Positions 28,387 to 57,472 of a stretch of DNA of 64,000 bases are shown piece by piece (within the stretch, counting starts at the first letter, position 1; every line of letters starts with the position of its first letter). The notes beneath the pieces are model-generated. The model did no database searches, was not told the DNA's origin, and saw only the letters and a program-made list of their open reading frames with translations. The translations under genes were made by a program, and so were the position numbers. This DNA is from a virus (lineage: Duplodnaviria; Caudoviricetes). The stretch is from positions 1 through 64,000 of the IMG/VR virus record IMGVR_UViG_2818991472_000001, one strand, 5' to 3'.

Positions 28387-28419
28387 GGTCCACCACCCGC
28401 GTTGAGGAGTTGCTGCATT

Positions 28420-28453
28420 CACCCCTTCGCGGAGACGACTGGACGGCAGACAG
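28420..28453 (-). promoter_or_regulatory. bipartite late motif
   Basis: CACCCCTT-N21-GACAG. Confidence 0.75.
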
Positions 28454-36123: not shown

Positions 36124-37122
36124 CTACTGCTTTACCACCTGGGCCAGGCCGCGCGGGTTCAGGATGGCGAAGCTAACCATCTCGTCGAAAACCCAGCCCT
36201 TCCAGAAGGACTCGACCTTGTGGTTTTCCTCGACGTCCAGGGAGTAGAGGACGGGGAAAACCCCCAGGAAGTTCGGCTCGGGGGTGAGGAACATCTTTCC
36301 CTGGGGAATGACGATGCTCCGCTGGATCTGGAACTCGCCGAAGGAGGTAATGGTCTCCCCGGCCACCACACGGTCCTTGAAAGCCCAGCCCGTTTGGTTG
36401 ATGTCCCACCGGTACATGTCCCGGAAGTCCATCGGGTTGATGAGAATTCGGGAGGACTGCAGCTCGTGCATGTCGGTCATGGAGACCGCGCTGTAGAAGC
36501 TGCCCGGGGTGAGGTAGCCGGATGCCTCGGTGATCGTGTGGTTGGGGGTAACCACGTGGTCAGCGCGACCGGCGTAGTCCGTGATGGCGGCCTGGAGGAT
36601 CGCGATCAGGCGCGAATCCTCCTGCTTGAGAATTGCCTGCTTGGTTTCGTCCTGCGCCTGCTCGACGACGTTGATTCGCAAGTAGAAAAGGTCTTCCTTG
36701 CGAATTGCCGGGCGGGCGGCAATTCGGAAGAACTTCACGTCGACGCGCTTGCCCTCGAAGGGCGTGATCTTGACTTCGCCCTCGGTCCCGGACATCAGGT
36801 AAGCCTGGCCGAGATCATCCCAGACGTCATACTGGACCGGCGTCCCGGGCGTCACCGGGTCCTCCATGAGGACATTCCTGGTGATTCCCTGGTAGCGCAG
36901 CTTGAGCTGAATCGGGCCGATCATGCCGACACCGAGACGCTTGATGCCGTTGTTTTCGTCCTGAACCACCAGAGCGAGGCGCTTTACCTTCGCTTCATGG
37001 GTGATCGGCGCGGCACCGGCCTTCTGGCTGTTCTCCAGCATCTCGGCGACGTAGGAATCCGAACGCCGGGAGGTGGAGCCCTTCTTGTGCAGCGGGCCAC
37101 CGCTGAGCACGGAAGTGGACAT
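36124..37122 (-). CDS. major capsid protein (Bxz1/cluster C-like HK97 fold)
   Basis: MIGPIQLKLRYQGITRNVL.ED, AILKQED, GWVFDE..FAILNPRG; follows decoration and scaffold genes. Confidence 0.85.
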   Translation of the reverse strand: MSTSVLSGGPLHKKGSTSRRSDSYVAEMLENSQKAGAAPITHEAKVKRLALVVQDENNGIKRLGVGMIGPIQLKLRYQGITRNVLMEDPVTPGTPVQYDVWDDLGQAYLMSGTEGEVKITPFEGKRVDVKFFRIAARPAIRKEDLFYLRINVVEQAQDETKQAILKQEDSRLIAILQAAITDYAGRADHVVTPNHTITEASGYLTPGSFYSAVSMTDMHELQSSRILINPMDFRDMYRWDINQTGWAFKDRVVAGETITSFGEFQIQRSIVIPQGKMFLTPEPNFLGVFPVLYSLDVEENHKVESFWKGWVFDEMVSFAILNPRGLAQVVKQ

Positions 37123-37156: not shown

Positions 37157-37660
37157 TTAGCGCAGGCCGCCGATGGTGATCTTCGAGGGGCTGTTGACCT
37201 TCAGCAGGCGCGCGATCGGCAGCGCCGAGGCACCGGCGGTTCCGGCGGGCACGAGCTTGCCCCGGGTGGCACCGGTGGTCTGGGCGTAGATGAGCTTCTC
37301 CGTGCCGTCACCGACCTCGGTCCAGGTGCCGAGGGAGTCGTCGAACGCGGGGCTGAGGACCTCGAACTCGGCGTCCGGCGCCAGCACCCACACCGCCATG
37401 GCGTTGAGGCCCACTTCGAGCAGCTCGTCGATGCCGTCCCCGCCGATGTAGTGGCCGATGAAGCCGTACGGAGCACCGGTGGCGTTGATGAGGGTGGCCT
37501 GCTCACCGACCGTCTTCATGGCGACCATGCCGGGCCAGATCGGCACGCTGCGGTCCCACGCGGGGTCCAGGAACATGGTCTTGGGGGTGCTCTGCGTGAA
37601 GCCGTAGAGCTGGCGAAACGTCCGCTTCAGGTGGGCCGTGGCGAGACGAGTCCTGATCAT
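37157..37660 (-). CDS. capsid decoration/cement protein
   Basis: IWPGMVAM..G, 167 aa, directly upstream of MCP. Confidence 0.65.
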   Translation of the reverse strand: MIRTRLATAHLKRTFRQLYGFTQSTPKTMFLDPAWDRSVPIWPGMVAMKTVGEQATLINATGAPYGFIGHYIGGDGIDELLEVGLNAMAVWVLAPDAEFEVLSPAFDDSLGTWTEVGDGTEKLIYAQTTGATRGKLVPAGTAGASALPIARLLKVNSPSKITIGGLR

Positions 37661-37855: not shown

Positions 37856-38767
37856 TCAGAGCCCGGCGAGATCCGAGGCGGACAGGAAGAGCATCGAGTC
37901 GTCGACGGACGACCCCTCCGGGCTCAGCGGCATCGGCGCGGACGCCATCGACGGGGCCGTGCGGGTGCTCGCGGAGCGGCGCGGCACCGCCTCGGGGCTC
38001 GGCACCCGGGACGCCGCCTTCACCACACCGTCGAGGGTCCGGATCTCGTGCTCGATCACCTCACCGGTCATCCCGGTGTCCGACTGGATCGACGCCGCCA
38101 GCGAGATGTCGTCGCCCGACGCGAGGCCAGCGTTGATGCGCAGCCGGGCCAGACGCAGCGACGCCGCGAACCGGCCCTCCAGCGCGGCGTGGCGCGCCCC
38201 CTGGCCCATCTCCCCGTCGCTCGGCGGCGCGGAGTTGGAGCGGTTCTCGGAGATCGTCCAGGGGAACGCCACCTCCGGCTGCATCGGGTCACCGACCCGC
38301 ACATCCGTCTCGATCCGGGTCTGCTCCGGGCTCAGCTCCCCGGGCTGGGTGCCCACGGTCGGAGCGGTGACGTCGACCAGGTTGGTGTACGGCTGGGTCG
38401 GCAGCGTGCCACCGGGGTTGATCGCCACGTCGGTGGCCGCTGCCGGAACGCCGCTGGTCGACCCCGGCGTCTGCCCCGGAGAGCGGACGTCGTCGTAGGT
38501 GGCCGGGGTGACCGCCTGCTCGGTGGTCTCCGTGGCGGCCTGCGACGCCGGGTCTGGCCAGGGCTGCGCCGGGTTGTTCACGTCGGCCACCTTGGCGATC
38601 TCGTCGGTGATGCCCGCGAGCCGGGCGATCATCGCGATCTGCTGCCTCTGCGCGGCCAGTTCACGGGCCTGGGCCTGGATCACGGCGCCCTGCTGGCCTA
38701 CCGTGGCGCGCAGCTGGTCCAGGACCGTCTGCTGCGCCGCGACAGCGGTCATGAGCGGTCGGCTCAT
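37856..38767 (-). CDS. scaffold protein (putative)
   Basis: ATG38767 with AAGGAG RBS; N-terminal coiled coil, Pro/Thr linker; between protease and capsid. Confidence 0.6.
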   Translation of the reverse strand: MSRPLMTAVAAQQTVLDQLRATVGQQGAVIQAQARELAAQRQQIAMIARLAGITDEIAKVADVNNPAQPWPDPASQAATETTEQAVTPATYDDVRSPGQTPGSTSGVPAAATDVAINPGGTLPTQPYTNLVDVTAPTVGTQPGELSPEQTRIETDVRVGDPMQPEVAFPWTISENRSNSAPPSDGEMGQGARHAALEGRFAASLRLARLRINAGLASGDDISLAASIQSDTGMTGEVIEHEIRTLDGVVKAASRVPSPEAVPRRSASTRTAPSMASAPMPLSPEGSSVDDSMLFLSASDLAGL

Positions 38768-38828
38768 AGCTACTGGGTCTCCTTCGCTGTGCGGACCGCT
38801 CCCGGCGTCTGCCGTAGCGGTGGTGCCT

Positions 38829-38862
38829 CGCCCCTTCATCGCCGGACGGGCATCGCGACAGG
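38829..38862 (-). promoter_or_regulatory. bipartite late motif
   Basis: CGCCCCTT-N21-GACAG, partly inside protease 3' end. Confidence 0.7.
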
Positions 38863-41226
38863 AGGCGGGACCGAGTCGGCCCCCTGCAGTTCGGCCGGGG
38901 TGAGCAGCTGGGCCTGGCCGCAGTTGGGGCAGACGTCGCCCGCCACGGTGCCGTCAGCCGCCGCCATCGGATCGCCCATGTTCTGGCTGGTCGGCAGCGT
39001 GGCTGCCGCCTGGAACCCGCAGCTCGGGCACATCAGGTCCGGCACCGAGTCCCCCGGAGTGCCGGGCATCGCCATCTCGGCCTCCGCCCGGTCCTCTTCA
39101 GGGGGCAGCACGTCCGGGCCCTCGGGCTCCTCCGGCCGGTCCGGCATGTCCGGACCCGGGGTGAAGGGATCACCGGTGTGGTCCTGCGCCCTCCACGGAA
39201 GCACCCGGGGCGTTGCCTGCCCCCCGGCCTCGGGCGGGATGACCTCGCCGTCCAGGCCGATCTCGTCGGGCTGGACGATGCCATCGCCGTTCCCGTCGAC
39301 CGCTGTCGGGGCGCCGTTGAGCTGCGTTCCATCCAGGGCCTGGCCCGAGGGCAGTACCTGGCCGTCCGGCCCGATCATCGAGGGGTCGACGGCCTGTCCG
39401 CCGGTCGGATCGGCGAGCGGGTCGCGCGGGTCCAGCGTGCCGTCGCCGTCCGGGCCGCCGACCGGGGTGAGCGTGCCGTCGTCGTCGACCATGCTGGGGT
39501 CGACGACCTGCTTGCGGAGGTCGAGCTGCTTGGCCATGTCGAGGTCGGGATCGCGGAACTGCTGCGGCGGGCTGATGAACCCACAGATGCGGCACATCTC
39601 CCCGTCGTAGGTGACGGAGTCGCCGCACACCGGGCAGGAGTCCTCCCGCAAGGTGTCCACGTCAGCCGGGGCCTTCGTCTCGCCGTACGCCAGGTGCTGT
39701 CGGGCAGTGTGGGAGTTGTCCTCGGCCTTGAGCTGCGGAACGTGCTCGCTCGACAGCCCGCGCCACTTCTCCCGCTGGTTGCGCATGTTGGTCTGGCGGC
39801 CCTTGCCGCCCGGCGAGGATGCGTCCTCATCGGCGTTCAGGCGCTGGCGCACAAGCCAGGTGGTGGCCTGCACCTCGTGCGGGGCGACGGTGCGCCCCTC
39901 GGAGCCGGAGATCTGCGCGGCGGCCGTGCGGTACTGCTGGGCGGCGTGCTCGTAGTAGTGCCGGGAGCCGCTCGGGAACTCGCCGCCCTCCTCTGAGCCG
40001 ACCCGGCGTCCGGCCGCCACGGAGAGCGCGTGCCGGTCGACGACCACCCGGTGCGAGTGGGCGGGCGGCGTGCCGCTGGCCTTCTCCTCGTCGGTCTGGG
40101 GCTCGTAGCCGCCGTGCTCGATCAGGTGGGCGAAGTCCTGCGTCTTCGGGCCCTTGAGGGCCTTCTGGTGGTGCTCGCCGTCCATGATCTTTTGGGCAGC
40201 GTTGGCGTGCGAGCCCATGATCATCAGGCCCTCGCCCTTGCCGAGGGCCCGCTGCTCGACGAAGGACCTCGCGGCGTTGTGCATGTTCGCCCACCAGTTC
40301 TGCTGGGGCGAGTACGCGGAGAGGACGCCCGCGCCCTTGTGGGCGGCCTCGGCGTCGTCGGTGATGTCGGGGTTCAGCTTGGCGATGGCCTTGGCCACGT
40401 GGTGCGCGTCGGGGTACCACCGGGCGCCCTGGGTCTTCTCCTCGTCGGTGGCCTGGTTCCAGTGGTCGACGATGTGGCTGTGGTGCAGCGGCACCTTCTT
40501 GTAGAAGGGGTGGTCCGCCGGGTTCTGGAACTGCGGGGCGGCGGCCTCGGCCTGGAGGCCCGCCGCCTTGCCCAGACCGGAGGCGTCGACCCCGAGGAAG
40601 TGCGCGGTCGGGTCGGCGGGCGGCTCGACCAAGAGGGAGTTCTCGAAGAAGCCCAGCCCGAAGCAGACCTCGCGGATCAGCTCTCCGACCCGCTGCCCGG
40701 AAGCGGTGTGCCGGTAGATCCGCTGGCCCTTGGAGCGAGGGATGTGCTGGCAGTACTCGGCCGGGGTGGTGGCGCGGTTGCCGCACGCGCTGCAGACCGA
40801 GTAGGCGACGTCGCAGCCCATCGAGGTGCGGTCGACGTCGCCGTCCAGGATGGCCTTGGCCAGCTTGGGGAACCTGCGTGCGTCGACTTCCATAAGAACT
40901 TCACACCAGGTGTCCGGTGTGCCGTCGGGGTTGCGGTCCTCGTGGAGCGCCGCGTCGATGACCACCCCTCGGGCTCGGCGGTGGTCGCTGTTCTCGTGGT
41001 TGACGAATACCGGCTTGCCGACGAATGTCTTATAAGCGGCCTTGATCTCTTCTGCGGGGAATTCGTCGAAGTTGTCGTTGCATCGCGAGCTGATGGCCCG
41101 GGACCGGACGTAGAGGTATCCCGGGCGTGCTGTGTACTCGAACGTGTGACGGTGGGCCTGCTTCGGCAGGCGCGCAGTGCCGTCGAGCTGGGCCGCGAGG
41201 ATCGTGGCAGCGGCGTACTTCCGCAC
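38836..41226 (-). CDS. prohead (capsid maturation) protease polyprotein with inserted glycosylase-like domain and Zn ribbons
   Basis: GTG41226 with GGGAGG; N.N.D.F, YKTFVGKPVFVNH, TSMGC, FENSLLVEPPADP protease motifs; central WY..AH..A / LSAYSPQ / GPKT..F / VVVDRH / VQATTW domain; C-terminal CxxC pairs. Confidence 0.75.
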   Translation of the reverse strand: MRKYAAATILAAQLDGTARLPKQAHRHTFEYTARPGYLYVRSRAISSRCNDNFDEFPAEEIKAAYKTFVGKPVFVNHENSDHRRARGVVIDAALHEDRNPDGTPDTWCEVLMEVDARRFPKLAKAILDGDVDRTSMGCDVAYSVCSACGNRATTPAEYCQHIPRSKGQRIYRHTASGQRVGELIREVCFGLGFFENSLLVEPPADPTAHFLGVDASGLGKAAGLQAEAAAPQFQNPADHPFYKKVPLHHSHIVDHWNQATDEEKTQGARWYPDAHHVAKAIAKLNPDITDDAEAAHKGAGVLSAYSPQQNWWANMHNAARSFVEQRALGKGEGLMIMGSHANAAQKIMDGEHHQKALKGPKTQDFAHLIEHGGYEPQTDEEKASGTPPAHSHRVVVDRHALSVAAGRRVGSEEGGEFPSGSRHYYEHAAQQYRTAAAQISGSEGRTVAPHEVQATTWLVRQRLNADEDASSPGGKGRQTNMRNQREKWRGLSSEHVPQLKAEDNSHTARQHLAYGETKAPADVDTLREDSCPVCGDSVTYDGEMCRICGFISPPQQFRDPDLDMAKQLDLRKQVVDPSMVDDDGTLTPVGGPDGDGTLDPRDPLADPTGGQAVDPSMIGPDGQVLPSGQALDGTQLNGAPTAVDGNGDGIVQPDEIGLDGEVIPPEAGGQATPRVLPWRAQDHTGDPFTPGPDMPDRPEEPEGPDVLPPEEDRAEAEMAMPGTPGDSVPDLMCPSCGFQAAATLPTSQNMGDPMAAADGTVAGDVCPNCGQAQLLTPAELQGADSVPPPVAMPVRR

Positions 41227-41257
41227 GGTGATGGGCCTCCCGGGCTTGTCGGGGTCT

Positions 41258-41291
41258 CGCCCCTTCCGGTCCTGGGAGGCCGTGCAGACAG
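41258..41291 (-). promoter_or_regulatory. bipartite late motif
   Basis: CGCCCCTT-N21-GACAG. Confidence 0.75.
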
Positions 41292-41490
41292 CGTCCGGCA
41301 ATTTTTAACCCGCGAGATGGCGCGTACACGGGGAGTTCTGCCTTAACCTCTGTATGAGCCAGCCTTAATCCATCTCGCGGTAGAGTGTCTTTTGCGACAT
41401 GTGTACTGCCGTGCCGCCAACGCGATCTGATGCACTGTCAGCTTCTGCGAGAGATAGCCCGCGCCGGTCTGCGGGTAGTTGAAATAGGAA

Positions 41491-41939: not shown

Positions 41940-42212
41940 GAGCTGAGCGGTGAACCATTTTTGGCCACCACCGCGCGGAGACGCCACCGCGATCGACACC
42001 GCGCCCCCACCCCCCTGTCACAGTTCGCCCGGATGCCGATCATCGTAGGCTTATGCATACAGAGCGTGTCAAGGTCACTTTCACGGAAGTTGGCTGGACG
42101 GTCTCTCGTGAAACTGGCTTGACTGTGTAGCATCTGGCCCCAGTTGCGTACCACTCGTGCGGCGAGACCTCCATGTCGCGTCCCTCGGACCCGGAAAGGC
42201 CCAGGTGGCAAG

Positions 42213-42743
42213 GTGTCAGGAAGTCTGGCAGGCCGACTGGAACGACTGTTTGACCTCAAGCGCAAGACTGACGGCACGCGTTGGCCGTACTCCGAGGTGG
42301 CTGAACAGATCAACCAGCGTCATCACTGTGCGTTGATGACCGAACTCGCCGCAACGCTTAAATCCGAGGGAAGAAGCGCTGAGGAGATTGCGGAGGCTGT
42401 CGCCCAGCAGGCCGTCAAGTCGGTCATCACGGGACAGTACATCGGGCAGCTCGTCAGCGGCGCCGCCGACAACCCGACCAGAATCCGGATGCAGTGCCTC
42501 GCCGAGTTCTTTGACATGGACCCATCCTTCTTCTTTGACGGGGAGAAGGCGGCGATGATGGACCGGGAGTTGGAGATGCTCCAGCTCCTGAAGAACCCGC
42601 ACGTCCGAACGCTCGCGCGCGCCGCCGACAGGCTCGACAAGTCGGGACTGGCGGCGGTGCTCGCCATCATGGGCCACATGAAGGTCGCCCCCCAAGTGTC
42701 CGTCCCCGATGAAGACGATCAAGCTCGCCCCGACGGTTCCTGA
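42213..42743 (+). CDS. EspR-like XRE family regulator
   Basis: LAGRLERLF..YSEVA..I.GQYI.QL.SG..DNPT...LAEFF...P.FF. Confidence 0.8.
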   Translation: MSGSLAGRLERLFDLKRKTDGTRWPYSEVAEQINQRHHCALMTELAATLKSEGRSAEEIAEAVAQQAVKSVITGQYIGQLVSGAADNPTRIRMQCLAEFFDMDPSFFFDGEKAAMMDRELEMLQLLKNPHVRTLARAADRLDKSGLAAVLAIMGHMKVAPQVSVPDEDDQARPDGS

Positions 42744-42824
42744 CGTCAGTCATATGCCATACGCTGAGGCGGCCCCGGAACTGACCGGATTTCGGGGGCG
42801 AAATTAGGACGGAATCGGGCGAAT

Positions 42825-43370
42825 ATGCATGGAGTCAGTCGCAGGGTACGTAAACGATGGAATGAGACGCTCCGGACACTCGTCGTTGACGAGCCATTTA
42901 CCACGGAGTCGCTTCGCGCTGCCGTGGAGAGCCACCGTGGCCGTCCGCTGGAGATCGTCCAAGGAGACTTCCGCTCGCTCGGGGACACCCCGTGCGGGCT
43001 CTGGGTGAAGAGCTGCGACCGGGACCTGATCCTCATCGACAGCAGTGTCACCGGACCCCAGTACGACCAGACCGTGGGCCACGAGATCGGCCACATCCTC
43101 ATGGGCCACGAGCCGCTCTCCCCGGCCATGCTCGTCTCCGAGATGGCACAGCTGGTCGACATGTTCCAGATCCTGCCGCCCAGCCTCGTCCGCGACGCCC
43201 TCAGCGGCGTCGCCCTCGGGCGCACCACCTACGAGGACCACAAGGAGCGCGAGGCCGAAGGGTTCGGCACCCTCGTGGCCCTCCACATCAAGCGCGAGGC
43301 CATGCGCCACGCTGACGCCCAGGCGGATGAGGTCCTCTCCGGCCTGCGCGACTCCCTCGGCTTCCGCTAG
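42825..43370 (+). CDS. ImmA/IrrE-like metallopeptidase regulator component
   Basis: PCGLWV, HEIGHILMGH (HExxH), Y....EREAE. Confidence 0.8.
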   Translation: MHGVSRRVRKRWNETLRTLVVDEPFTTESLRAAVESHRGRPLEIVQGDFRSLGDTPCGLWVKSCDRDLILIDSSVTGPQYDQTVGHEIGHILMGHEPLSPAMLVSEMAQLVDMFQILPPSLVRDALSGVALGRTTYEDHKEREAEGFGTLVALHIKREAMRHADAQADEVLSGLRDSLGFR

Positions 43371-43385
43371 CCCCAGGAACCCCAC

Positions 43386-44663
43386 ATGATCATCTGGCTC
43401 TTCGTCATCCTGCCGCTGTGGGTCGTGGTGATCGCCCGGACCCCGGTGGCGATCCGGCAGCGAAGATCACGGCCCCTCTACGGAAGCTTCCTCTCCCTCT
43501 CGATCTCACTGACCGCCATACGACCCCAGGTCGTCGACCTGCTGTACCGCTGGACCCACATCGCGGGCCTCGCCGACCTGATCAAGCAGGTCAGCGGCAT
43601 GGTGGCGATGGCCTTCATCCTCAGCTGGGTCGTCTCGGTGACACCGCCGCCCAGGCCAGGCCAGGCCAACCGCCTCTACTTCCGCATCGCACGAGGCCGG
43701 ACCCGCCACGTCGTCACCACCATCTGCGTCTCCCTCGCCGTCGGCCTGTTCCCCTTCATGGACACCGCCGACCGGGCGCTGCCGGACAGCCCCGACCTCG
43801 CGCTCACCCAGATCGGCCACCCGCTTGGCGCGGTCAGCATGCAGACCTTCCAGATCTACCTGTGCTTCAGCATGATCAGCTGCGCACTGATGTGCTGGGA
43901 CGCCTGGCACCGGGACCGCCGGAGCATCCTCGGCCTGAGCATGTGGTGCGTCGCCTTCGGCTGTGCCGCCGGGTTCTGCTACGGCTTCCTCCGCCTGACC
44001 TACCTGGTCGGCATCATGGCCGGAGCCAGCCTCCCCAGCTGGGTGCTCTACGTGGGCACCAACGGCTTCGTACTACTCTCGGTCGGCTTCATCCTTGTTG
44101 GCACGTCCCTGCCGGTCCTTGAACGGATCAAGACCGAGCTGTCGTACCGCTCCTCGCTGATCAAGCTCCGGGCACTGTGGGACGAGGTCACCAGCGCGGT
44201 GCCAGCCGTGGTCTACTGCGGTCCCCGCAAGACCACCCGGCTCAACGACCGCTTGAACCTCCGCCACCTCGACGAGCGGCTCCACCGCCGGATCGTCGAG
44301 ATCGAGGACGGCGCGATGGCCCTGCAGACCTGGTGCTCGGCCTCCCTCGGCCACGCCGTCCGCGAGGCCGCCTCCGGTGCGGACCTGCTGTTCGCCCAGG
44401 CCCTCATCATCCGGATCGCGGCGAACCGCAAGCGCCAGGGCAGCCCGGCCGCCGAGGTCCAGGACACCGAACCCCTCCTGCCCACCTCGCCGAGCCCCAG
44501 GGTCCGCCTCGCCTACCTCGAACAGCTCTCCTGGGCGATCGAGCCCCGCCCCGAGATGCCCGACGAAGAGCAGATCAACCAGCTGCTCCCCAACCTCGAC
44601 ACCGAGTTCCTCAACCAGATCCGCTTCTCCCTCGGCCTGCGGACACGCCAGGAGACCCAATGA
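43386..44663 (+). CDS. MAB_1171c-family membrane sensor/transporter with DUF6545-like C-terminus
   Basis: ~7 TM helices then L.ALW..VT.AVP..LHRRIVEIEDG..AL motif. Confidence 0.8.
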   Translation: MIIWLFVILPLWVVVIARTPVAIRQRRSRPLYGSFLSLSISLTAIRPQVVDLLYRWTHIAGLADLIKQVSGMVAMAFILSWVVSVTPPPRPGQANRLYFRIARGRTRHVVTTICVSLAVGLFPFMDTADRALPDSPDLALTQIGHPLGAVSMQTFQIYLCFSMISCALMCWDAWHRDRRSILGLSMWCVAFGCAAGFCYGFLRLTYLVGIMAGASLPSWVLYVGTNGFVLLSVGFILVGTSLPVLERIKTELSYRSSLIKLRALWDEVTSAVPAVVYCGPRKTTRLNDRLNLRHLDERLHRRIVEIEDGAMALQTWCSASLGHAVREAASGADLLFAQALIIRIAANRKRQGSPAAEVQDTEPLLPTSPSPRVRLAYLEQLSWAIEPRPEMPDEEQINQLLPNLDTEFLNQIRFSLGLRTRQETQ

Positions 44664-46726: not shown

Positions 46727-46760
46727 CGCCCCTTCCCCGCTCAGTCCAGCCACGGGACAG
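46727..46760 (-). promoter_or_regulatory. bipartite late motif
   Basis: CGCCCCTT-N21-GACAG. Confidence 0.7.
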
Positions 46761-48279
46761 GGTCGAGGTCGGCGTAGTGCGTGCCCTCGATCTGGAGCGA
46801 GCCGAGGTTCCTGGCCAGCACGTCCTCCCCCTCCTCGATCAGGGCCCGGCGCTCGGCCGGGGTGAAGTCCCGCAGCGCGTGCTTCGCGAACCGGCGCGCC
46901 GTATACGGCGTCAGCGCCTCGTCCTCCGCCGGAATCCCGAGGTCACCGCCGTCGGTCGAGGGCAGCGCACCGTCCGGCTGGTCGTGCAGAACGGCCTGCG
47001 CCCCTGCCTCGTCCGGGGCCAGCGTCCCCAGCCGGTCGTCGAGCGATCCGGGCAGAGCGTGGCTCCAGCCCTCCGGATCGGCTCCGGCCAGCGGCCCGGC
47101 CGACACCGGGTTCTCCCCGGCACGCGGCGGGGACGTCGCCCCCAGCGCCGGGGGCGCCAGCACGCTGCCGCTGCCGGGCTCACCGAACGGTGAACCGACC
47201 GACGCCACGACCCCTGCCGCCGCCAGCGCCAACCGGACCTCCGCCGGGTCCTCTCCCGACTCCACCATGGCCCGCGCGACCAGCCGCAGCGGCGCCTCGG
47301 CCACCGCGAGCGAGGACGCCCGGCCGAACTCGTTCCGGGCCTGGTCGATGTCCCACTTGACCACGACATGCCTGGGCACCCAGTCCGGCCGCTCCTGGTC
47401 CGCCATCACATCCCGGCCGAACATCCCCCGGCTCTGCGCCTCGTACGTCAGCGCGAGAGCGTGGCTGCACATCCGCCCGGCGAAGCGCGAGAAGTCGTCG
47501 CTGGCCCCCCAGTGGTACGCGCCCCACTTGCAGCCGCAGCTCCATGCCTGGATCGAGGACCTGCCCGGCAGCCGCTGCAGGCCCGTCTCGTAGACCTCGT
47601 GGTCACCCCGGACCTCGCCGACGACCAGGCCGTCCGTGGCCAGGGTGACCCGGACGCCGCCCTCGGTCCTGATCCGCTTGGCCTTCGCAACGACGTCCCT
47701 CCACGCGGCGGTGATCTGGAACCGGAAGTCGCCGTCGGTCGCTGCGATGACCAGCATCGAGGTGAAGGGGAAGGAGTCCTTGCCGTCGTCCTTCTTGCCG
47801 TCCTTGTCGTCGTCGCCGTTGCCCTTGTCGTCGTCGGAGTCGTCCTTCTTGCCGTCGTCCGAGTCAGAGTCAGAGTCATCGTCGTCCTGGTCATCCCGAT
47901 CGTCGTCGTCGGAGTCGCCGTCCTGCTTCGCCGCGACGTGGCGCAGCCCGGCCGGATCAGGCCGGGAGACGAGAACCTCGGCCAACTCCGGGTAGTCGTC
48001 GGCCGCCGTCCCCCGGGCCGCCAGCGCGGTCGGAGCAGGACGCAGCTGAGAAGCGGTGTACGACCCGCCGCCAAGACCCCCATGCAGGTCGACCTTGTAC
48101 TCCTCCCAGCCCGGGAACGGGCCGTCGAGCACAGCCCGGACGGTTCCGGGCAGTCCCTCGGGAGTCATCACCACCTGGTCCGGCCGGTACTCCCAGTACT
48201 CCTCCGAGGCCACAGCAAGGCGCTGGGCCGCCAGGGTCTGGTGACCAGCCGTCCGCCGCATCCGCCGCCTGCTCGCCAT
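46741..48279 (-). CDS. SWIM Zn-finger head-region protein with acidic tract
   Basis: ATG48279 with GGAGG; WSCGCKW...MCSH (CxC..CxH); Asp-rich linker. Confidence 0.65.
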   Translation of the reverse strand: MASRRRMRRTAGHQTLAAQRLAVASEEYWEYRPDQVVMTPEGLPGTVRAVLDGPFPGWEEYKVDLHGGLGGGSYTASQLRPAPTALAARGTAADDYPELAEVLVSRPDPAGLRHVAAKQDGDSDDDDRDDQDDDDSDSDSDDGKKDDSDDDKGNGDDDKDGKKDDGKDSFPFTSMLVIAATDGDFRFQITAAWRDVVAKAKRIRTEGGVRVTLATDGLVVGEVRGDHEVYETGLQRLPGRSSIQAWSCGCKWGAYHWGASDDFSRFAGRMCSHALALTYEAQSRGMFGRDVMADQERPDWVPRHVVVKWDIDQARNEFGRASSLAVAEAPLRLVARAMVESGEDPAEVRLALAAAGVVASVGSPFGEPGSGSVLAPPALGATSPPRAGENPVSAGPLAGADPEGWSHALPGSLDDRLGTLAPDEAGAQAVLHDQPDGALPSTDGGDLGIPAEDEALTPYTARRFAKHALRDFTPAERRALIEEGEDVLARNLGSLQIEGTHYADLDPVPWLD

Positions 48280-48306
48280 GTGCTCTCCTCCGTGGCTCCC
48301 GACTCT

Positions 48307-48341
48307 CACCCCTTGATCCGGTCGGGAACGCGCCCCGACAG
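48307..48341 (-). promoter_or_regulatory. bipartite late motif
   Basis: CACCCCTT-N22-GACAG. Confidence 0.7.
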
Positions 48342-48860: not shown

Positions 48861-49637
48861 TCACGTGATCGGCGCGGTCCAGGCGGCGGACCAGGTCTTG
48901 GGCCCGATGATCCCGTCGGTGCCCAGCTGCTTCTCGTCCTGGAACTGCCGGACGACCCGGTCGGTCTGCGGACCGAAGATCCCGTCGACGCCGATCGTCC
49001 AGCCCCGGTGGCTCATCTGCGCCTGCCACTGCCGCACGTCGTCGCCGCTCATGCCCTGCTGCAGGTACCGGCCGGGCCACGCGGGCGCGGACGACGCCGG
49101 GGGCTGCGGCGTCGGGGACGGGGTGGGCTGGCCGCCCGGCCTCGGCGCACCGGCCTGGACCCAGGCGTAGAGCGGCTCACCCGGGCAGTCGGTCGCGTAC
49201 CCGTCGCGGTGGCCCTTGATCTCCGGCCCGGCCCCGTTGGCCTGGAGCAGCTCGATCGCGTCGCGCAGCGCGCCGAGCATCGCGTCGGTCGGCTGCGTCA
49301 TCCCCTCCGAGCCGAGGAGCCCGCACACTGCGTAATCGGCGTGGTTCAGCGGCTGGTTCCCGTTCGCGCCGGTTTCCTTGCGCAGGCCACGGCCCTCGAA
49401 GACCCAACCATGCTGGCAGCAGCCGTAGTTGTACGCGATGTCCACCCAGCCCTGGACCGGGTCGGACATGTGCGCGACGCGGATGTCCTTCCACAGCTGG
49501 ATGCACTGGCTGTGATCGCCAGCCAGGGTCGTGGGGACGTTGCCGCCCTCGTAGTGGACCTTGACGCCCTGGGTGGTCGGCTGATCGGCGGCTGCCGTCG
49601 CGGGCCAGCCCAGCTGGTCGCGGGTGAGAAGCTGCAT
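48861..49637 (-). CDS. endolysin 2: Amidase_2 plus PG_binding_1
   Basis: VHY, WVDIAYN, EGRG, GHRD, TDCPG; VDGIFGPQT..FQ..DGIIGPKTW. Confidence 0.9.
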   Translation of the reverse strand: MQLLTRDQLGWPATAAADQPTTQGVKVHYEGGNVPTTLAGDHSQCIQLWKDIRVAHMSDPVQGWVDIAYNYGCCQHGWVFEGRGLRKETGANGNQPLNHADYAVCGLLGSEGMTQPTDAMLGALRDAIELLQANGAGPEIKGHRDGYATDCPGEPLYAWVQAGAPRPGGQPTPSPTPQPPASSAPAWPGRYLQQGMSGDDVRQWQAQMSHRGWTIGVDGIFGPQTDRVVRQFQDEKQLGTDGIIGPKTWSAAWTAPIT

Positions 49638-49667: not shown

Positions 49668-50714
49668 TCAGTTCGCCGGAACGCGCAGCTGGGCCCAGCT
49701 GGTGGGGCCCGGGATGCCGTCGGCGGCGTCGCCGGAGTAGCCGAGCGAGCGCTGGAAGGCCGCGTAGGACGCCTGGTCGGCCGGGCCCCAGTCGGGGCCG
49801 GGGCCGACGCGGTACTGGGAGAAGCCAAGGGCGACCAGGCGCTGGCCCATCCGGGTGATCACGTCGGAGTGCTGGCCGTCGTGGAAGAAGTCCTGGCCGG
49901 GGAAGGGCTCCAGGGCGGCGTCGAGGAGCTGGTGCAGGGACTGCTCGCCCGGGACGCCGTCGGCCGCCGCTCCGCTGTAGCCCAGGGAGCGCTGGTAGTC
50001 GGCGTAGTTGAGGGTGTCGGCGTCCGTCCAGTCGGGGCCCGGACCGACCTGGTAGTGGCTGCCGAAGCCGCGTGCCACCAGGGCCTGGCCGACCCGGGTG
50101 ACCTGGTCTCCGTGGGCGCCGTAGCCGTAGACTTGGCCGTCGATCGTGACCTGGTAGCGGGCGATGGCCGGGGTGGGCGGCTGCTCGGGCTGCGGTGCCG
50201 GGGAGGTGCCGCCCGGCCGGGGCGCACCGGCCTGCACCCAGGAGTACAGGGGGTCACCCGGGCACTCGGTCGGGTACCCGTCGCGGTGGCCCTTGATCTC
50301 CGGCCCGGCCCCGTTGGCCTGGAGCAGCTCGATCGCGTCGCGCAGCGCGCCGAGCAGTGCGTCGGTGGGCTGGGTGAGCCCCTCGGAGCCGATCAGGGCG
50401 ACGACGGCGTAGTGGTCCCGGTTGAGCTGCTGGTTCCCGTTGGCCCCGGTGCGCTTGCCGATGCCACGGCCCTCCAGCACGTAACCGTGCTGGCACGAGG
50501 CGTAGTTGTACGCGACGTCTACCCAGTTCTCGGTCTTGTTGGCGAGGTGGCTGGCCCGGATCGACTGCCACTCCTGGATGCACCGGCTGTGGTCGCCGAG
50601 CAGGTCGGTGGAGACCGGAGTGCCCTCGTAGTGAATCTTGACGCCCTGGGTGGTCGGCTGGTCGGCCGCCGCCGAGGCGGGCCAGCCCAGCTGGGCGCGG
50701 GTGATGAGCTGCAT
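49668..50714 (-). CDS. endolysin 1: Amidase_2 plus two Streptomyces-type PG-binding repeats
   Basis: Same amidase motifs; two Y.VGPGPDW..AD...YA..QRSLGYSG.AADG.PG repeats. Confidence 0.9.
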   Translation of the reverse strand: MQLITRAQLGWPASAAADQPTTQGVKIHYEGTPVSTDLLGDHSRCIQEWQSIRASHLANKTENWVDVAYNYASCQHGYVLEGRGIGKRTGANGNQQLNRDHYAVVALIGSEGLTQPTDALLGALRDAIELLQANGAGPEIKGHRDGYPTECPGDPLYSWVQAGAPRPGGTSPAPQPEQPPTPAIARYQVTIDGQVYGYGAHGDQVTRVGQALVARGFGSHYQVGPGPDWTDADTLNYADYQRSLGYSGAAADGVPGEQSLHQLLDAALEPFPGQDFFHDGQHSDVITRMGQRLVALGFSQYRVGPGPDWGPADQASYAAFQRSLGYSGDAADGIPGPTSWAQLRVPAN

Positions 50715-51395: not shown

Positions 51396-53591
51396 TCAGG
51401 CCGTCAGGATGGACAGGATGGTGTTGGCGGTGAACTGGTGGCCCGCATCCGACATGTGGATGGTGTCGGTACCTGCGTTGCCGACGCTGGCCTCGTTGCC
51501 CCAGTAGCCCAACGAGGCCCAGTAGTTCCAGCTGTTCCTGCCCATGGGCCAGAGGTCGACGAAGGCCGCACCGTAGGCTTCGGCCACCATGCGCCCCCGC
51601 GCGGCGTAGTCCTGGTACCGGTAGTTGGCGTTGTCGTAAGCGCCGATGTGCTGCATCACGATCATCACGTCGGAGGTCCCGGTGACGGCGGTACCGCCGA
51701 CGGTGGTGCCGTCCTTGACCGCCGACAGGTACTGCCTGAGGTTCGATGACCAGGTGTCCGCCGTCATGCCGGTCAGGACATCGTTCGATCCCAACATGTA
51801 GATGACCAGGTCAGCCGGGTAGTCCGGGCCGCCCGACCAGTTCGCGACAGCGGTTCCGACCGTGTTGTACGCGAAGGAAGCGCTACCGGCCCCTGCGAGG
51901 CCGTAGTTGTTCACGACGATGCCACTGGCGTTCTCCGCCGTGACACCGCAGACGGAGAGATAGCTGCCAGCGGCTCCGTTGTGGGTGATCGTGACAGTGT
52001 GGGTTCCGCTGGACAGCCCGGTGATGGTCGTCACCTGGATGCTGGACTGGGCGGTTCCGCTGTCGGCCACCGAGACGGCCGCGTTGCCGTCGATCGAGTA
52101 GGTCCAGTTGACCCGTCCCGCACCGCTGAGGGTGTAGACGCGGACCGTGCTGCCCCGCACGGTGAAGGTCAGGCTGCTGCCGTTGGTGCTGGTGTAGATG
52201 AAGTTCGCGCCGGGCCCGTAGCGGTTTCCGACACCCCAGGTGCCGGACTGGGTGACCAGGTTCCCGGGAGTCCCCTGCCAGGCAGTAACCGAGGCGCCTG
52301 TACCGAGGAATGCCGCGCTGCGGCCGGTGCTGAAGTAGCCACTGCCGCCATCCCCGTAGGTGGCCTGGAGGCTGCTGGCCAGGCGCCCGACCCAGGAAGT
52401 GGAGACCAGGTTGGACGCGTACAGGCCCTGGGTGCTGGAGCTGCCGACGGCCGCGACGGTCGCAAGCCCAGTGCTCGCGGCACTGCGCTTCGCCCGCCAG
52501 AACTGGCCCCACCCGGGCGGGACGTAGATACCCAGGGGGGCACCGAGCGGGGCCTGCGACGCGGGTACGCGGCCGGTGGTGTCCAGGGTCGCGATGCCGC
52601 TCGTGACGCCGACCTGAGCCTGCGTCACGACGTTCGAGGGCAGCTGCGCGGCGGCCAGGTGTCCGGTCGCGTCCAGTGCGGCGACGCCGTTCGCCGCGCC
52701 CACGTCGCTCGCGGGGACCGCCCGGACGTCGCCCGCGCCCAGGACGACCACGCCGGTCTTGCCGTTGACCTGCAGCACGGGAAGCTGGGACGGCTGGACG
52801 TACCGGCCGTCGGCCGCAGCCTGGGTGAGCGCGCCGATGTCGGCGGCCGAGACCACCACGGCGCCCGTGCGGCCGAACACGGAGGTGACCAGCGATGTCG
52901 GCAGCTGCGCGGTGGTGGCGTAGCGGGCGTCGGCGTCGGCCTGGCTGAGCGCGCCGACGTCGCCCGCGCTCAGCACGACCACGCCGATCTTGCCGTTGAC
53001 CGACGTCAGCCCCGACCCCTTGGTGGCGTAGCGGGCGTCGGCGTCGGCCTGGCTGAGCGCCCCCAGGTCGGCGGCCGTCAGCACCACGGCGGCAGTCTTG
53101 CCGTTGACCGAGGTGACGCCCCCAGTTCCGCCCCCGCCGGTTCCGCCGCCGGGCGTCAGCCCGTCCGGCAGCTGCACGGCCAGGATCTTCCCCGAGCCGT
53201 CCAGCTCCGGGTAGCCGCCCGGCAGACCCCGCTGGTTGAGGGACTGCAGCACCACGATCTGCGGCGGCGGGGTCGTCTGCCGCACCACCGCCTGCAGGTC
53301 CACCACCGACCCGTCGGCGGGCACCTTGATGTAGTAGGTGCTCACCGGCTGCCCGGTCAGCGCCTCGTCGACGCGGTACATCACCCCGACGGGAAACGTG
53401 CCGTCGTCCATCGGCGACGGCACGGTGAAGGAGACCTTGCCCTGCGCGTCCAGGGCCTTGGACACCGGCACCGGCTCGGCGATCTGCCCGCCGTTGATCA
53501 CCGGCGCCGTCAGCTGCAGCTGCACCGTCCCCGCGCTCGGCGTCGTCCCCGTCACGTACGTCCCGCGCACGGTCACCTGCGTGATCCCCAC
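51396..53591 (-). CDS. fibre protein with VTSVNGK repeats and C-terminal SGNH/GDSL hydrolase
   Basis: four V.SVNGK.G.VVL.A.D.GA repeats; VGSSSTQG, NYGLAG, LGSND, DTIH SGNH blocks. Confidence 0.8.
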   Translation of the reverse strand: MGITQVTVRGTYVTGTTPSAGTVQLQLTAPVINGGQIAEPVPVSKALDAQGKVSFTVPSPMDDGTFPVGVMYRVDEALTGQPVSTYYIKVPADGSVVDLQAVVRQTTPPPQIVVLQSLNQRGLPGGYPELDGSGKILAVQLPDGLTPGGGTGGGGTGGVTSVNGKTAAVVLTAADLGALSQADADARYATKGSGLTSVNGKIGVVVLSAGDVGALSQADADARYATTAQLPTSLVTSVFGRTGAVVVSAADIGALTQAAADGRYVQPSQLPVLQVNGKTGVVVLGAGDVRAVPASDVGAANGVAALDATGHLAAAQLPSNVVTQAQVGVTSGIATLDTTGRVPASQAPLGAPLGIYVPPGWGQFWRAKRSAASTGLATVAAVGSSSTQGLYASNLVSTSWVGRLASSLQATYGDGGSGYFSTGRSAAFLGTGASVTAWQGTPGNLVTQSGTWGVGNRYGPGANFIYTSTNGSSLTFTVRGSTVRVYTLSGAGRVNWTYSIDGNAAVSVADSGTAQSSIQVTTITGLSSGTHTVTITHNGAAGSYLSVCGVTAENASGIVVNNYGLAGAGSASFAYNTVGTAVANWSGGPDYPADLVIYMLGSNDVLTGMTADTWSSNLRQYLSAVKDGTTVGGTAVTGTSDVMIVMQHIGAYDNANYRYQDYAARGRMVAEAYGAAFVDLWPMGRNSWNYWASLGYWGNEASVGNAGTDTIHMSDAGHQFTANTILSILTA

Positions 53592-53594
53592 CTG

Positions 53595-55724
53595 CTACCC
53601 CTTCTCCAGCGGCACAGCCGCGTCGATCTTCAGGAACCTGCGGGCACCGACATGGACCGGGTCGCCGTACCGGCCGTGCGGGCGCCGGTGCTCCGGCGCG
53701 ACCGTGCTATCCGGCCCGTACACCACCGGCGCGTTGTACGCGCGGCCCAACGCCCGCATCCGCGCCGCGCCCTTGAACAGCGCGGCGGGCTTGGGCATCC
53801 CGCCGCGCTGCTCGCTGCTCTCCGGCGGCACCGCCGAGCCCTCCCCGGCCGCCGCCCCGTCGCTCCCGTCGCCCTGGCCCGCGTCGACCGGCTGCGCACC
53901 GAAGCCCGGCACCGGCACTCCCCCGGCGGGCGGCATGCCCGCGATGTCGGTCGTGGTCGGCGCGAGCGTCGGCTGCAGCGCCACCGGGTCGAGGCCCATC
54001 AGCGGCGCCCGGATCATGTCCATCGCCGGGTCCTGGCCCTCGGGCAGAGCACGCGGCTCGAAGTCCGCCCGCAGGTCGGCCGGGATCGGCAGCCCCTCGG
54101 CCCGCAGCCGCTGGTACAGCTCCTTGCGGGTGCGCTGCTCCTCGACGGCCAGCTCGATCTGCTCCTCGCGGGTCTTGTTGACCTCGTCGTCGAAGTCGAT
54201 GGAGACGTTGTGGAGCCGGGTGCGCATGGAGATCGGCACCCCGGCCTCGCGCAGTGCCTCGAAGAACTCGGTCTGCCGGGCCTCGTCCTGCAGGGACATG
54301 GTCCGGAACTCAATCTCGGGGATCAGCAGCTTGGGCTGCTCGACGATCCGCTCCTCGCCGGTCTCCTCGTCGACCTCCAGGACCTCCTCCATACGCACGA
54401 ACCGCTGGCCGCCCCGGGTCTCGTAGTCGTAGTGCTCCTGGGCCTCCGCTACCACCAGGGCGCGCTGCCGGTAGTGGCGGCGCACGAGCTTCTGGTAGTC
54501 CGTCAGGAGCTGGGTGACGAGGTCGCGGTTCAGGGCGTCGGCGGCGTACGTCTCACCGGAGCTGGCGCCGGACAGCATGGTCTGGGACAGGCCGAAGACC
54601 TGGAGAATCCGGCCCTCGATCCGGTCGAAGTCGTCGGTGAAGTCCGGCATGTCCTCTTTCCCGAGGACCGGGGCCATGTCGATGCCGAAGTGATGGGTGA
54701 TCACCCGGAAGTCAGCGGCGAGCGCGGAGTCCAGGGCCTCCTCGAAGTCGGCCAGGTCGTCCTGGGTGGGAATCCACGGGACCTCGGTGCCCAGGTCGGA
54801 GGCGGACGCGCCGAGCTTGGCCAGGATCAGGGGGGTGTAGAGCCGATCGGCGACCGCGTCGACGGCCGCGTTCAGCATCTCCTCCTGCATCAGGCTGCGC
54901 ATCCCCCGGTACAGCAGCGGCACGCCCCGTTTGGCGTTCGGGCCGCCGCCGTGGAATTTCAGCTGCCGCAGGAGGATGTTGCTGACCGGCATGAGGACGT
55001 TGTCGGCGGCGTAGGCGGCCAGCTCCGGGTAGGCGGCCATGAGCTTGTCGTACTCCCAGGCCGGGGTGCGGGTGCGGATCAGCTCCCGCATGGCCTCCGG
55101 CAGCCGGATCGTGTACCTCGGGTCGCGCAGGAACGGGCTCCGCTGGACCTCGATGTTGTCCGGGTCCAGCAGTTCCTCGTCGTCCCAGACCCCGAGCGCC
55201 TCGTTGAAGGTCCCCAGCGGCCACGCCTCGCCGACCAGCCAGTACTCGCGCCCCATCGAGACGAGGAACTCGTCGTAGTTCAGCCCGTGCTCCTCGTCGA
55301 AGAACAAGTCCGAGTAGAACTCCGTGAGGCGCTCGTCCTTGCAGGACAGCTTCATCCCGAGCAGCGGATACTTCGCGTAGATGTCGATGCACGACCCGAC
55401 GATGGGATGGGCCGCGTACACCAGGCGGCAGTACGCCCGAAGGCGCTTCATCTGCTCCGAGTCGTCGAACTCGAACGGGAGGTTGTTCTGCTTCCAGTAG
55501 AAGAGCGGGTCGCGCGGCCGGGAGGTGGCGAACCCGAGGCTCGGCCCGGAGCGCCCGGAGCCGTCGGCCTCCTTGCGCATCCGCACCCGCCGGTTGTGCC
55601 GCATCTCGGAGACCTCGGGCGACTCCGAGTCGCTCCCGGCCGTCCTCGACGCCCGCCGGAAGAGCTTCGACATGCGCGTCAGCGCTGCCTCGCTCGGCCC
55701 TCGGTCCCTCGCCGTGCCCGCCAT
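53595..55724 (-). CDS. portal protein
   Basis: ATG55724 with GGGAGG; HPIVGSCIDIY.KYPL, EYW..GE, RG.PLL, YTPLILAKLG motifs of Bxz1-like portals. Confidence 0.8.
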   Translation of the reverse strand: MAGTARDRGPSEAALTRMSKLFRRASRTAGSDSESPEVSEMRHNRRVRMRKEADGSGRSGPSLGFATSRPRDPLFYWKQNNLPFEFDDSEQMKRLRAYCRLVYAAHPIVGSCIDIYAKYPLLGMKLSCKDERLTEFYSDLFFDEEHGLNYDEFLVSMGREYWLVGEAWPLGTFNEALGVWDDEELLDPDNIEVQRSPFLRDPRYTIRLPEAMRELIRTRTPAWEYDKLMAAYPELAAYAADNVLMPVSNILLRQLKFHGGGPNAKRGVPLLYRGMRSLMQEEMLNAAVDAVADRLYTPLILAKLGASASDLGTEVPWIPTQDDLADFEEALDSALAADFRVITHHFGIDMAPVLGKEDMPDFTDDFDRIEGRILQVFGLSQTMLSGASSGETYAADALNRDLVTQLLTDYQKLVRRHYRQRALVVAEAQEHYDYETRGGQRFVRMEEVLEVDEETGEERIVEQPKLLIPEIEFRTMSLQDEARQTEFFEALREAGVPISMRTRLHNVSIDFDDEVNKTREEQIELAVEEQRTRKELYQRLRAEGLPIPADLRADFEPRALPEGQDPAMDMIRAPLMGLDPVALQPTLAPTTTDIAGMPPAGGVPVPGFGAQPVDAGQGDGSDGAAAGEGSAVPPESSEQRGGMPKPAALFKGAARMRALGRAYNAPVVYGPDSTVAPEHRRPHGRYGDPVHVGARRFLKIDAAVPLEKG

Positions 55725-55742
55725 CCCGTCCTCCCTGTCGGT

Positions 55743-55776
55743 CACCCCTTCCGGGTGGCGGGCAGGCGGCGAACAG
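55743..55776 (-). promoter_or_regulatory. bipartite late motif
   Basis: CACCCCTT-N21-AACAG. Confidence 0.7.
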
Positions 55777-55865
55777 GAGACGCAGACCGGTATGACTGAT
55801 CGCGGAGTCTCCCGCAACCAGGCCACGCTCGGTGCCTTGGGGGACGGCCCGTCGTTGAGTAGGGC

Positions 55866-56749: not shown

Positions 56750-57472
56750 TCATCCGGTCCAGGCGTCCGGGTGCAGCGAGGACAACTGCTTGACGTTCTG
56801 CGGCCAGTACGAGGGCAGCCCGTCGTACGGGTTGCCCGCCGCGAGGTTCGGGGAGTTGTAGCAGAACACCGTCCGGATGCCCCGCGCGTACGCGCGGGCG
56901 ATGGCCTGCTGAGACGACGCCAGGTCCGGCACGGACTTCAGCACCACCGCGTACCGGCTCGGCGGGAAGTTGCCCAGCCACGTCGGCGGCGTCCAGGCCA
57001 TCCAGTCCTGCACGGTGCCCTCGAAGATCACCGTCTGGTCGGCCATCGCGATGTACGCCGGGTCCGGCACCACCCCGGGGTTGAGCACCACGAAGCGGGC
57101 GCCGTGCTTGCGCAGGCCCAGGACAGTCGTGGCCGTCGACTGGATGTGCCCGGGGTCGGGCGGGCACTGGTCCAGGAAGACCGCACTGAAGCCCCGGCCC
57201 CGCCAGGTGTCCATGTCCTGGAAGACGTTGAAGTCCAGCCGAGTCCCGTAGGTGTACGCGATGTAGGCGGCCACCGTGGTGCCAGCGGCCATCACGGCCT
57301 TGCCCACGTCGGAGAGCACGGTGTCCTCGGTCGTGCCGGGCCCGTTGAACTGGTTGAGCACCACCCAGTCCACCGGCAGCCCCGGGACCGCAAGGTCGGC
57401 CCAGGGCGCCCCGTTGATGCCGGGGTGCACGTACAGCGGCACCCCGGCGCCCATCGTTGACGGTGCGAGCAT
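56750..57472 (-). CDS. spherulin-4 family (GH135-like) glycoside hydrolase
   Basis: PLYVHP, VVLN..GPG, Y..YG.R, VFLDQ, VVLNPG, D..V.FEG, NPYD.LP motifs. Confidence 0.8.
   Translation of the reverse strand: MLAPSTMGAGVPLYVHPGINGAPWADLAVPGLPVDWVVLNQFNGPGTTEDTVLSDVGKAVMAAGTTVAAYIAYTYGTRLDFNVFQDMDTWRGRGFSAVFLDQCPPDPGHIQSTATTVLGLRKHGARFVVLNPGVVPDPAYIAMADQTVIFEGTVQDWMAWTPPTWLGNFPPSRYAVVLKSVPDLASSQQAIARAYARGIRTVFCYNSPNLAAGNPYDGLPSYWPQNVKQLSSLHPDAWTG

Follow-up and report, generated by a model that had tools for sequence, protein, structure and literature searches.

In a 64,000-nucleotide stretch of viral DNA (Duplodnaviria; Caudoviricetes; positions 1 to 64,000 of IMG/VR record IMGVR_UViG_2818991472_000001; hereafter the window, which is the first 64 kb of contig C8 in an actinomycete assembly of 10.09 Mb and 9 contigs), we found a prohead protease gene that carries a domain of the Pfam family DUF7178 in an exchangeable slot, and we predict that this domain has the fold of the HhH-GPD base-excision enzymes. 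The gene encodes a modular polyprotein composed of an N-terminal prohead serine protease of the phage T4 gp21 type, a swappable middle slot, and a constant C-terminal tail of zinc ribbons and acidic sequence. The explanation that we favour as a whole, and that we consider probable rather than assured, is that the DUF7178 domain is an N-glycosidase that would be loaded into the capsid, cut free, delivered together with the DNA, and there act on an N-glycosidic bond in DNA.

The protease domain and the exchangeable slot

The open frame occupies 38836-41301 on the minus strand and encodes 821 amino acids (AA) with a GC content at third codon positions of 0.92, a strong high-GC coding bias; the public gene call (P0215, 796 AA, 100% identical) begins at residue 26, that is, at window position 41226. 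Residue numbers refer throughout to the 821-AA frame, and the features are collected in Table 1. Residues 47-233 match PHROG 18299 (‘head maturation protease’, E = 8e-25) and PHROG 2774 (E = 2.7e-69), while searches of Pfam, the NCBIfam protease families and PDB sequences returned no match for the domain. A model built from an alignment of 26 homologues (predicted local distance difference test, pLDDT, 83; core >90) has an assemblin-like beta-barrel fold, and its three best Foldseek matches in the PDB were chains of T4 gp21 (probability 0.96-0.98), with nothing at E≤0.001. His102 (codon 40996-40998) and Ser160 (codon 40822-40824) are invariant in the 26 diverse homologues, His preceding Ser at a spacing of 58, and the scaffold-like, cement and major capsid genes follow it directly on the downstream side. 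Because of the PHROG 18299 match, the modelled gp21/assemblin fold and this position in the head module, we identify the N-terminal domain as a prohead protease with predicted proteolytic activity, as an earlier reading made from the sequence alone (the sequence-only reading) had proposed. Stand-alone versions of the protease (~221-260 AA) end just past a conserved PADPTA motif. The domain also contains an invariant C-x-x-C...C-x-H insert (CSAC...C-x-H; residues 170-186, window 40744-40794, minus strand), which is probably a zinc site.

At least 63 of the top 146 DUF7178 proteins start with the same protease (55-80% identity), and the two domains share one frame in at least 124 retrieved proteins, on which count we rejected an artefactual fusion. 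A reverse search with the protease domain retrieved 747 longer proteins; among the best 120 of these (67-100% identity), ~70 carry DUF7178 and the remainder carry NUDIX, DUF6582, GNAT or nothing recognisable, some being named ParB-like by NCBI. When 34 long members were tallied for Pfam domains, NUDIX_4 and an Arr-type ADP-ribosyltransferase (ART) joined this list, along with GNAT modules, and sister proteins with NUDIX, GNAT, ART and ParB-like modules reach 2,557 AA.

When five Streptomyces proteins lacking DUF7178 (proteases 75-78% identical) were aligned with four that carry it, this gene included, the two groups differed by a clean indel between the protease end GLGKAA and an AYGE-x-KAP-x-DVDTLRE-x-x-CPVCG box, which sets the limits of the insert at residues 253-534. 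The DUF7178 insert is a cassette in a swappable slot. The sequence-only reading had placed it at 39690-40540 (residues 254-537), in agreement with the limits set by the cassette-less relatives; its suggestion that homologous proteases be aligned for a variable insertion was borne out by the same indel, and the motifs it quoted lie where it put them, both within and ahead of the cassette (GLGKAA, 242-247; ADHPFY, 262-267; GPKTQ, 384-388; VVVDRHA, 419-425; VQATTW, 477-482) and on its C-terminal side (AYGETKAP, 538-545; DTLRE, 549-553; CPVCG, 556-560). The AYGE box and first zinc ribbon are kept in all relatives, with or without cargo, and the zinc ribbons and tail are conserved across all of them; the C-terminal tail with the second zinc ribbon may be the capsid-binding end.

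The three parts also occur unfused. A 157-kb metagenomic relative encodes the protease (260 AA, 53% identical), DUF7178 (359 AA) and the zinc-ribbon tail (244 AA) as three adjacent genes with overlapping starts and stops, upstream of scaffold, cement and capsid genes. Homologous to the protease over ~200 AA (42-47% identity) are the ‘capsid maturation protease’ of cluster C mycobacteriophages (Bxz1/Cali gp93) and that of Gordonia phage Stormageddon (gp13), which share the gene order of long protease protein, cement and capsid; the Cali genome, at ~155 kb, is similar in size to this element, and that of Stormageddon is 136 kb. Neither protein contains DUF7178: in its place, Cali gp93 has an L5-gp82-like domain, and no Pfam domain at all is found in Stormageddon gp13.

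A full-library HMMER search with the DUF7178 domain found 805 cluster representatives, most of them embedded in proteins of 500-2,557 AA at positions from ~20 to 1,600, and the fold turns up again, in a viral structure library, among proteins annotated as ART-PolyVal or ‘large polyvalent protein associated’. A stand-alone DUF7178 gene lies on a Lentzea chromosome (locus L037, 8001-8816) next to genes for relaxase-like (Replic_Relax), FtsK/TraB-like or DUF87/TrwB-like ATPase, DprA-like, NlpC/P60 and YgjP-like proteins, in a locus that resembles a conjugative element, so the family extends beyond phage heads. The name ‘DUF7178’ was not found in any publication by our literature search.

Fold and candidate active site of the DUF7178 cassette

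Pfam DUF7178 (PF23802) matches residues 275-485 at E = 4.8e-32 (111.9 bits vs. a cut-off of 27; profile positions 17-189 of 193), far beyond chance, as the sequence-only reading had anticipated in calling the insert DUF7178-like. The match was confirmed at the DNA level, is the sole copy in the 10.09-Mb assembly and is absent from 14 control genomes. An AlphaFold model built from a 42-sequence alignment (pLDDT 95.6; predicted template modelling score 0.91) is all helical and has the two-lobed HhH-GPD fold of EndoIII, MutY, AlkA, OGG1, Ogg2, MagIII and AGOG. Structural comparison of the model, in which VIA-align gave the family-coherent signal, placed known glycosylases foremost (Tm1821 Ogg2, 11.7; MagIII, 8.7; QNG1/DUF2419, 8.5 and 8.2; Mag1, 7.8; hOGG1, 7.8; AGOG, 7.5; EndoIII, 7.4), with the first unrelated chain at 4.8 and MBD4 at 4.7 and 4.5. 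The HhH-GPD fold that the sequence-only reading had ascribed to the insert is thus upheld by the model.

This kinship is not visible in sequence. A Pfam scan of the 42 DUF7178 members at E≤10 found no family of the HhH-GPD clan, a search of the whole assembly with PF22175 at E≤10 gave no match, and the DUF7178 alignment used as a profile against PDB sequences gave 0 matches at E≤10. In hhalign, the same alignment scored a probability of 0.04% against the host's own EndoIII and 1.3% against an EndoIII/MutY alignment of 32 sequences drawn from 30 actinobacterial genomes, in neither case with a credible register. Two unpublished genomes that were also listed for this comparison supplied none of the loci analysed, and no conclusion depends on them. 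Because there is no detectable sequence match, we do not file DUF7178 under HhH-GPD (PF00730) or Ogg-HhH (PF22175); by the model, the link is one of fold only and not of membership in the Ogg2 or EndoIII family. We propose that the family forms a hitherto unassigned clade within the HhH-GPD base-excision fold, nearest in modelled shape to the Ogg2-type 8-oxoguanine glycosylase/apurinic-apyrimidinic lyases. The closest system for the fold, Ogg2 (M. jannaschii Ogg, 3KNT; T. maritima Tm1821, 3N0U), is only 11% identical to DUF7178, with no detectable sequence relationship, and differs in its setting as well, being a cellular repair gene rather than part of a phage head polyprotein.

Across the 269 DUF7178 domains retrieved, Lys386 (of G-P-K) is kept in 268, Asp422 (of V-D-R-H-A) in all 269 and His424 in 267; together with the aromatic pocket residues (W, Y, S, W, N, Q, T, W), these positions are kept in >95% of the domains, down to ~31% identity with this copy. 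The further near-invariant motifs RWY, YSPQ..W..N and QA.TW form a set that Ogg2 does not share, and the hairpin has G-P-K in place of the G-h-G of Ogg2. The model has a helix-turn-helix at model residues 117-134, made of a short helix (117-120), a K-G-P turn (vs. the canonical G-h-G) and a helix from 124, of which Lys386 is the second residue; a loop containing Gly and Pro follows, and Asp422 stands immediately before a helix at 162-169. As modelled, this order of helix, turn, helix, Gly/Pro loop and Asp before a helix is, apart from the K-G-P turn, the HhH-GPD signature layout.

In the alignment with mouse MBD4, the last positions are model residue 161 (Asp422) and, in the MBD4 chain, residue 534, which we take to be the catalytic Asp of MBD4 (range end-points only). 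Linear interpolation of the alignment ranges of OGG1, EndoIII and QNG1 puts the catalytic Asp within ~8 residues of Asp422, and the Lys of these enzymes is consistent with Lys386 if a longer Lys-Asp loop is allowed for (36 residues vs. 19 in hOGG1, a loop ~17 residues longer by estimate). The placement of Asp422 at the HhH-GPD catalytic Asp, proposed in the sequence-only reading for the Asp of VVVDRH, is supported by the model, by the invariance of the residue and by the MBD4 end-point, and Lys386 is the probable equivalent of the HhH-GPD Lys. These models and conservation patterns give good support to a predicted N-glycosidase whose active site is Ogg2-like.

Proposed loading, release and delivery of the cargo

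We reasoned from the architecture of the gene that the prohead protease would be co-assembled into the procapsid and that a cargo fused to it would be carried into the head in tens of copies; the cargo would enter because the protease must be built into the procapsid in order to act. The C-terminal tail of the HK97 protease reportedly mediates encapsidation and can carry foreign proteins in. The cassette would probably be cut free at the junctions that flank it and then be trapped with the packaged DNA, and the freed, folded domain of ~30 kDa would stay in the capsid and probably enter the next host with the genome, like the T4 internal proteins and Alt. Once delivered, the enzyme may cleave an N-glycosidic bond in DNA, either in repair or conditioning of the incoming genome or in attack on, or countering of, host DNA chemistry. 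The analysis shows the identities of the domains, their modelled folds, the conserved residues, the exchange of the cassette and its setting in the head module; the encapsidation, the cleavage sites, the injection and the substrate are what we infer for this cargo.

Candidate cut sites can be named from motifs at the junctions. E-A-A-(G)-P occurs 11 residues ahead of DHP(W/F) in 44 of the 86 embedded DUF7178 copies, roughly where stand-alone proteins begin (a comparison in which only 2 stand-alone sequences were usable), and NSH(V/T)A(R/L) occurs 53 residues past QATTW in 22/40 copies; in the longer relatives, [KR]-T-A-[AS] is 4-6x over-represented and is placed at module borders. Proteases of the gp21 type cut after Glu, which fits LQAE/AAAP at the protease/cargo junction, and the motifs flanking the cassette could be cut sites.

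For this logic, the closest known system is T4 gp21 with its processed, co-injected head proteins (IPI-III and Alt). The T4 cargoes are separate genes with a short capsid-targeting peptide, whereas here the cargo is inserted covalently between the protease and the C-terminal tail; gp21 has a cleavage specificity (L/I-x-E), whereas here there are candidate motifs only; and gp21 is much shorter than this protease domain (its crystal chain has 165 residues). With regard to domain repertoire, the closest are the polyvalent proteins of portal-terminase phages and conjugative elements, which have been proposed to travel with invading DNA and among which no glycosylase is listed (Iyer, Burroughs, Anand, de Souza and Aravind, 2017; PMC5512222). 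In those proteins, the assemblin-like peptidases are always C-terminal (PMC5512222), whereas the peptidase here is always N-terminal, with the cargo internal and the constant tail at the other end; they are large multi-enzyme polypeptides with several unrelated effector domains each; this copy has one enzymatic cargo besides the protease, and its sisters have up to several cargo modules. The sequence-only reading had likened the arrangement to MuF-fused effectors, an analogy that fails because no MuF family is among the Pfam or PHROG matches of the protein; the gp21-processed internal proteins and Alt of T4 and the polyvalent proteins are closer. No fusion of a glycosylase and a prohead protease was found described in our literature search.

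A number of observations weigh against the explanation that we favour. With respect to delivery, neither candidate cleavage motif was found convincingly in the N-terminus of the capsid protein when this was aligned with those of Cali and Stormageddon, the split-gene relative shows that fusion to the protease is not required to keep the enzyme in the head module, and a virion proteome of Bxz1 or I3 that would cover the homologue did not turn up in our literature search. With respect to fold, no sequence profile ties DUF7178 to HhH-GPD (PF00730) or Ogg-HhH (PF22175), and Foldseek against the PDB returned nothing at E≤0.001 for the DUF7178 model; in this Foldseek check, which the sequence-only reading had suggested, OGG1, MjaOgg and AGOG were among the weak matches. 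With respect to chemistry, the equivalence of Lys386 is not proven at the residue level, the hairpin lacks the G-h-G of DNA-binding HhH motifs, and the cassette copy is mildly acidic (isoelectric point, pI, 6.5 vs. a family median of 8.0 and 8.6 for the EndoIII set). Finally, QNG1 gives the longest aligned stretch, and its match is close to those of the DNA glycosylases; together with the hairpin and the pI, this weakens the ‘DNA-acting’ reading.

This last point bears on a different substrate. QNG1/DUF2419, a queuine salvage glycosylase with an HhH-GPD-type fold and a Lys/Asp pair (Lys199, Asp231), acts on a free nucleotide, releasing queuine from queuosine-5'-monophosphate, and the cargo may likewise be a nucleotide or nucleoside N-glycosidase that, after delivery, finds its substrate in the pool of free nucleotides or in a nucleotide that serves host defence as a signal, a reading that we judge unlikely, though not negligible; of the two, a DNA glycosylase is the likelier. 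Separately, we considered a link to 7-deazaguanine/queuosine and rejected it: the whole assembly has no TGT/DpdA match, and of its 45 NUDIX matches none is on contig C8.

Catalysis itself might be dispensed with if the cassette were a structural or DNA-binding module of the head core (scaffold, inner body or DNA organiser) that is then degraded or retained. The protein otherwise resembles a protease with a scaffold-like tail, the cluster C mycobacteriophage equivalent (1,089-1,286 AA) is mostly unassigned sequence, and HhH folds are able to serve as DNA binders. The conservation of Lys386, Asp422, His424 and the pocket residues in the 269 homologues is, however, hard to explain without catalysis, and close relatives without the domain show that it is not needed for assembly; we accordingly regard a non-catalytic module as quite improbable.

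We give similarly little credence to the idea that the place of action is the cell that produces the phage or the head as it matures, with the enzyme proofreading or repairing the genome at packaging, for instance, and the fusion serving co-localisation only. It is true that a folded domain of ~30 kDa must unfold to pass the tail and that, as the split-gene form shows, the late operon can yield the enzyme as a separate protein. Yet T4 ejects gp21-processed proteins as large as Alt, and the DUF7178 fold is found also in phage polyvalent proteins and in the conjugative-element locus, settings that are tied to DNA entry (PMC5512222).

The head module, its neighbours and a possible general loader

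Contig C8 (155,259 bp) has a GC content of 69.6%, vs. 72-74% for the remaining contigs of the assembly. The element is a large myovirus-type phage or phage-plasmid, because many close homologues of the protease sit on 150-157-kb contigs of Streptomyces assemblies, one of which is labelled a plasmid; C8 itself is possibly an extrachromosomal phage-plasmid. The start of the scaffold-like gene overlaps the stop codon of the polyprotein gene, and its 327-AA product presumably has a scaffold-like function. The major capsid protein shares 58% identity with its counterparts in Mycobacterium phage Cali and Gordonia phage Stormageddon.

Table 1. Coordinates in the window of the polyprotein gene, its parts and genes of the head and tail.
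Feature	Position	Strand	Remark
Protease-cargo polyprotein gene	38836..41226	-	GTG start at 41226; frame open upstream to TTG at 41301
Prohead (capsid maturation) protease domain, residues 26-241	40579..41226	-	
Protease/cargo junction GLGKAAGLQAE/AAAP, residues 242-256, candidate processing site	40534..40578	-	
DUF7178 cassette with predicted HhH-GPD glycosylase fold, residues 253-534	39700..40545	-	
Putative HhH lysine, Lys386	codon 40144-40146	-	
Putative catalytic aspartate, Asp422	codon 40036-40038	-	
Conserved box AYGE-x-KAP-x-DVDTLRE and first zinc ribbon (CPVCG...CRICG), residues 538-574	39580..39690	-	DZR E = 0.003
Acidic Asp/Pro/Gly-rich low-complexity region, residues 575-757	39031..39579	-	pI ~4
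Second zinc ribbon (CPSCG...CPNCG) and conserved C-terminal tail, residues 758-821	38839..39030	-	
Scaffold-like protein, 327 AA, coiled-coil N-terminus	37856..38839	-	Only weak coiled-coil matches; position equals that of a 315-AA gene in the 157-kb metagenomic relative
Phage cement (decoration) protein	37157..37660	-	Pfam Phage_cement_3, E = 6.8e-26
HK97-fold major capsid protein	36124..37122	-	PHROG 2522, E = 9e-103; NCBIfam NF042927, E = 1.4e-102
Portal protein, same head module	53595..55826	-	PHROG 2833, E = 4.7e-146
Tail sheath gene	26863-28422		

A second variable family of head-module proteins (PHROG 2940/30974) is represented in the window by a 522-AA protein (46741-48309, minus strand), and its relatives comprise a protein of 1,278 AA with LysM/transglycosylase in Cali (L002:2054-5890), one of 973 AA with a SWIM finger in Stormageddon (L001:3038-5959) and one of 1,370 AA with a NUDIX domain in the 157-kb metagenomic contig (L038:678-4790). 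The gene lies between portal and protease in Stormageddon and upstream of the protease in Cali and in the metagenomic contig, and its product is possibly another carrier of cargo.

Just upstream of the protease gene, the minus-strand late region is interrupted by a plus-strand insert (42144-44663) that encodes a 199-AA protein without a family match, an IrrE/ImmA-like metallopeptidase (Peptidase_M78, a weak match) and a DUF6545 membrane protein. Between the portal and head genes lie two adjoining endolysin genes (48861-49637 and 49668-50714, minus strand; PHROG 1493, E = 2e-50 and 5e-49, respectively). Directly after the portal gene, a 731-AA tail-like protein (51396-53591, minus strand; PHROG 15881) has a C-terminal GDSL/CE2 esterase domain and is likely a surface-glycan deacetylase, and a Spherulin4-family protein is encoded at 56750-57472 (minus strand; Pfam PF12138, E = 1e-23).

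We raise, tentatively and as something that could well turn out otherwise, the broader proposal that the protein of protease, slot and tail is a general, evolvable loader in a large clade of ~150-kb actinobacterial phages and phage-plasmids, taking DUF7178, NUDIX, GNAT, Arr-like ART and ParB-like modules as cargo, and that the target of DUF7178 is a defence-related base or nucleotide met at DNA entry rather than classical oxidative damage. Such targets might include bases altered by anti-phage deaminases or modification systems of the host, or a nucleotide that signals in immunity.

A few proteins are known to accompany phage DNA on injection; which proteins these are, and by what rules they are loaded, has been worked out for only a handful of model phages. 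In the present family, a loading rule may be read in the gene itself, as a cargo set between a gp21-type protease and a constant tail and exchanged among hundreds of relatives, and a predicted fold and a candidate Lys/Asp active site can be assigned to a large Pfam family of unknown function. If the cargo is indeed delivered, it would represent the first known capsid-borne enzyme of the base-excision type and would point to a new route of genome protection or counter-defence for phages of Streptomyces and its relatives, and the protein that carries it would lend itself as a natural scaffold with which to load capsids with foreign proteins.

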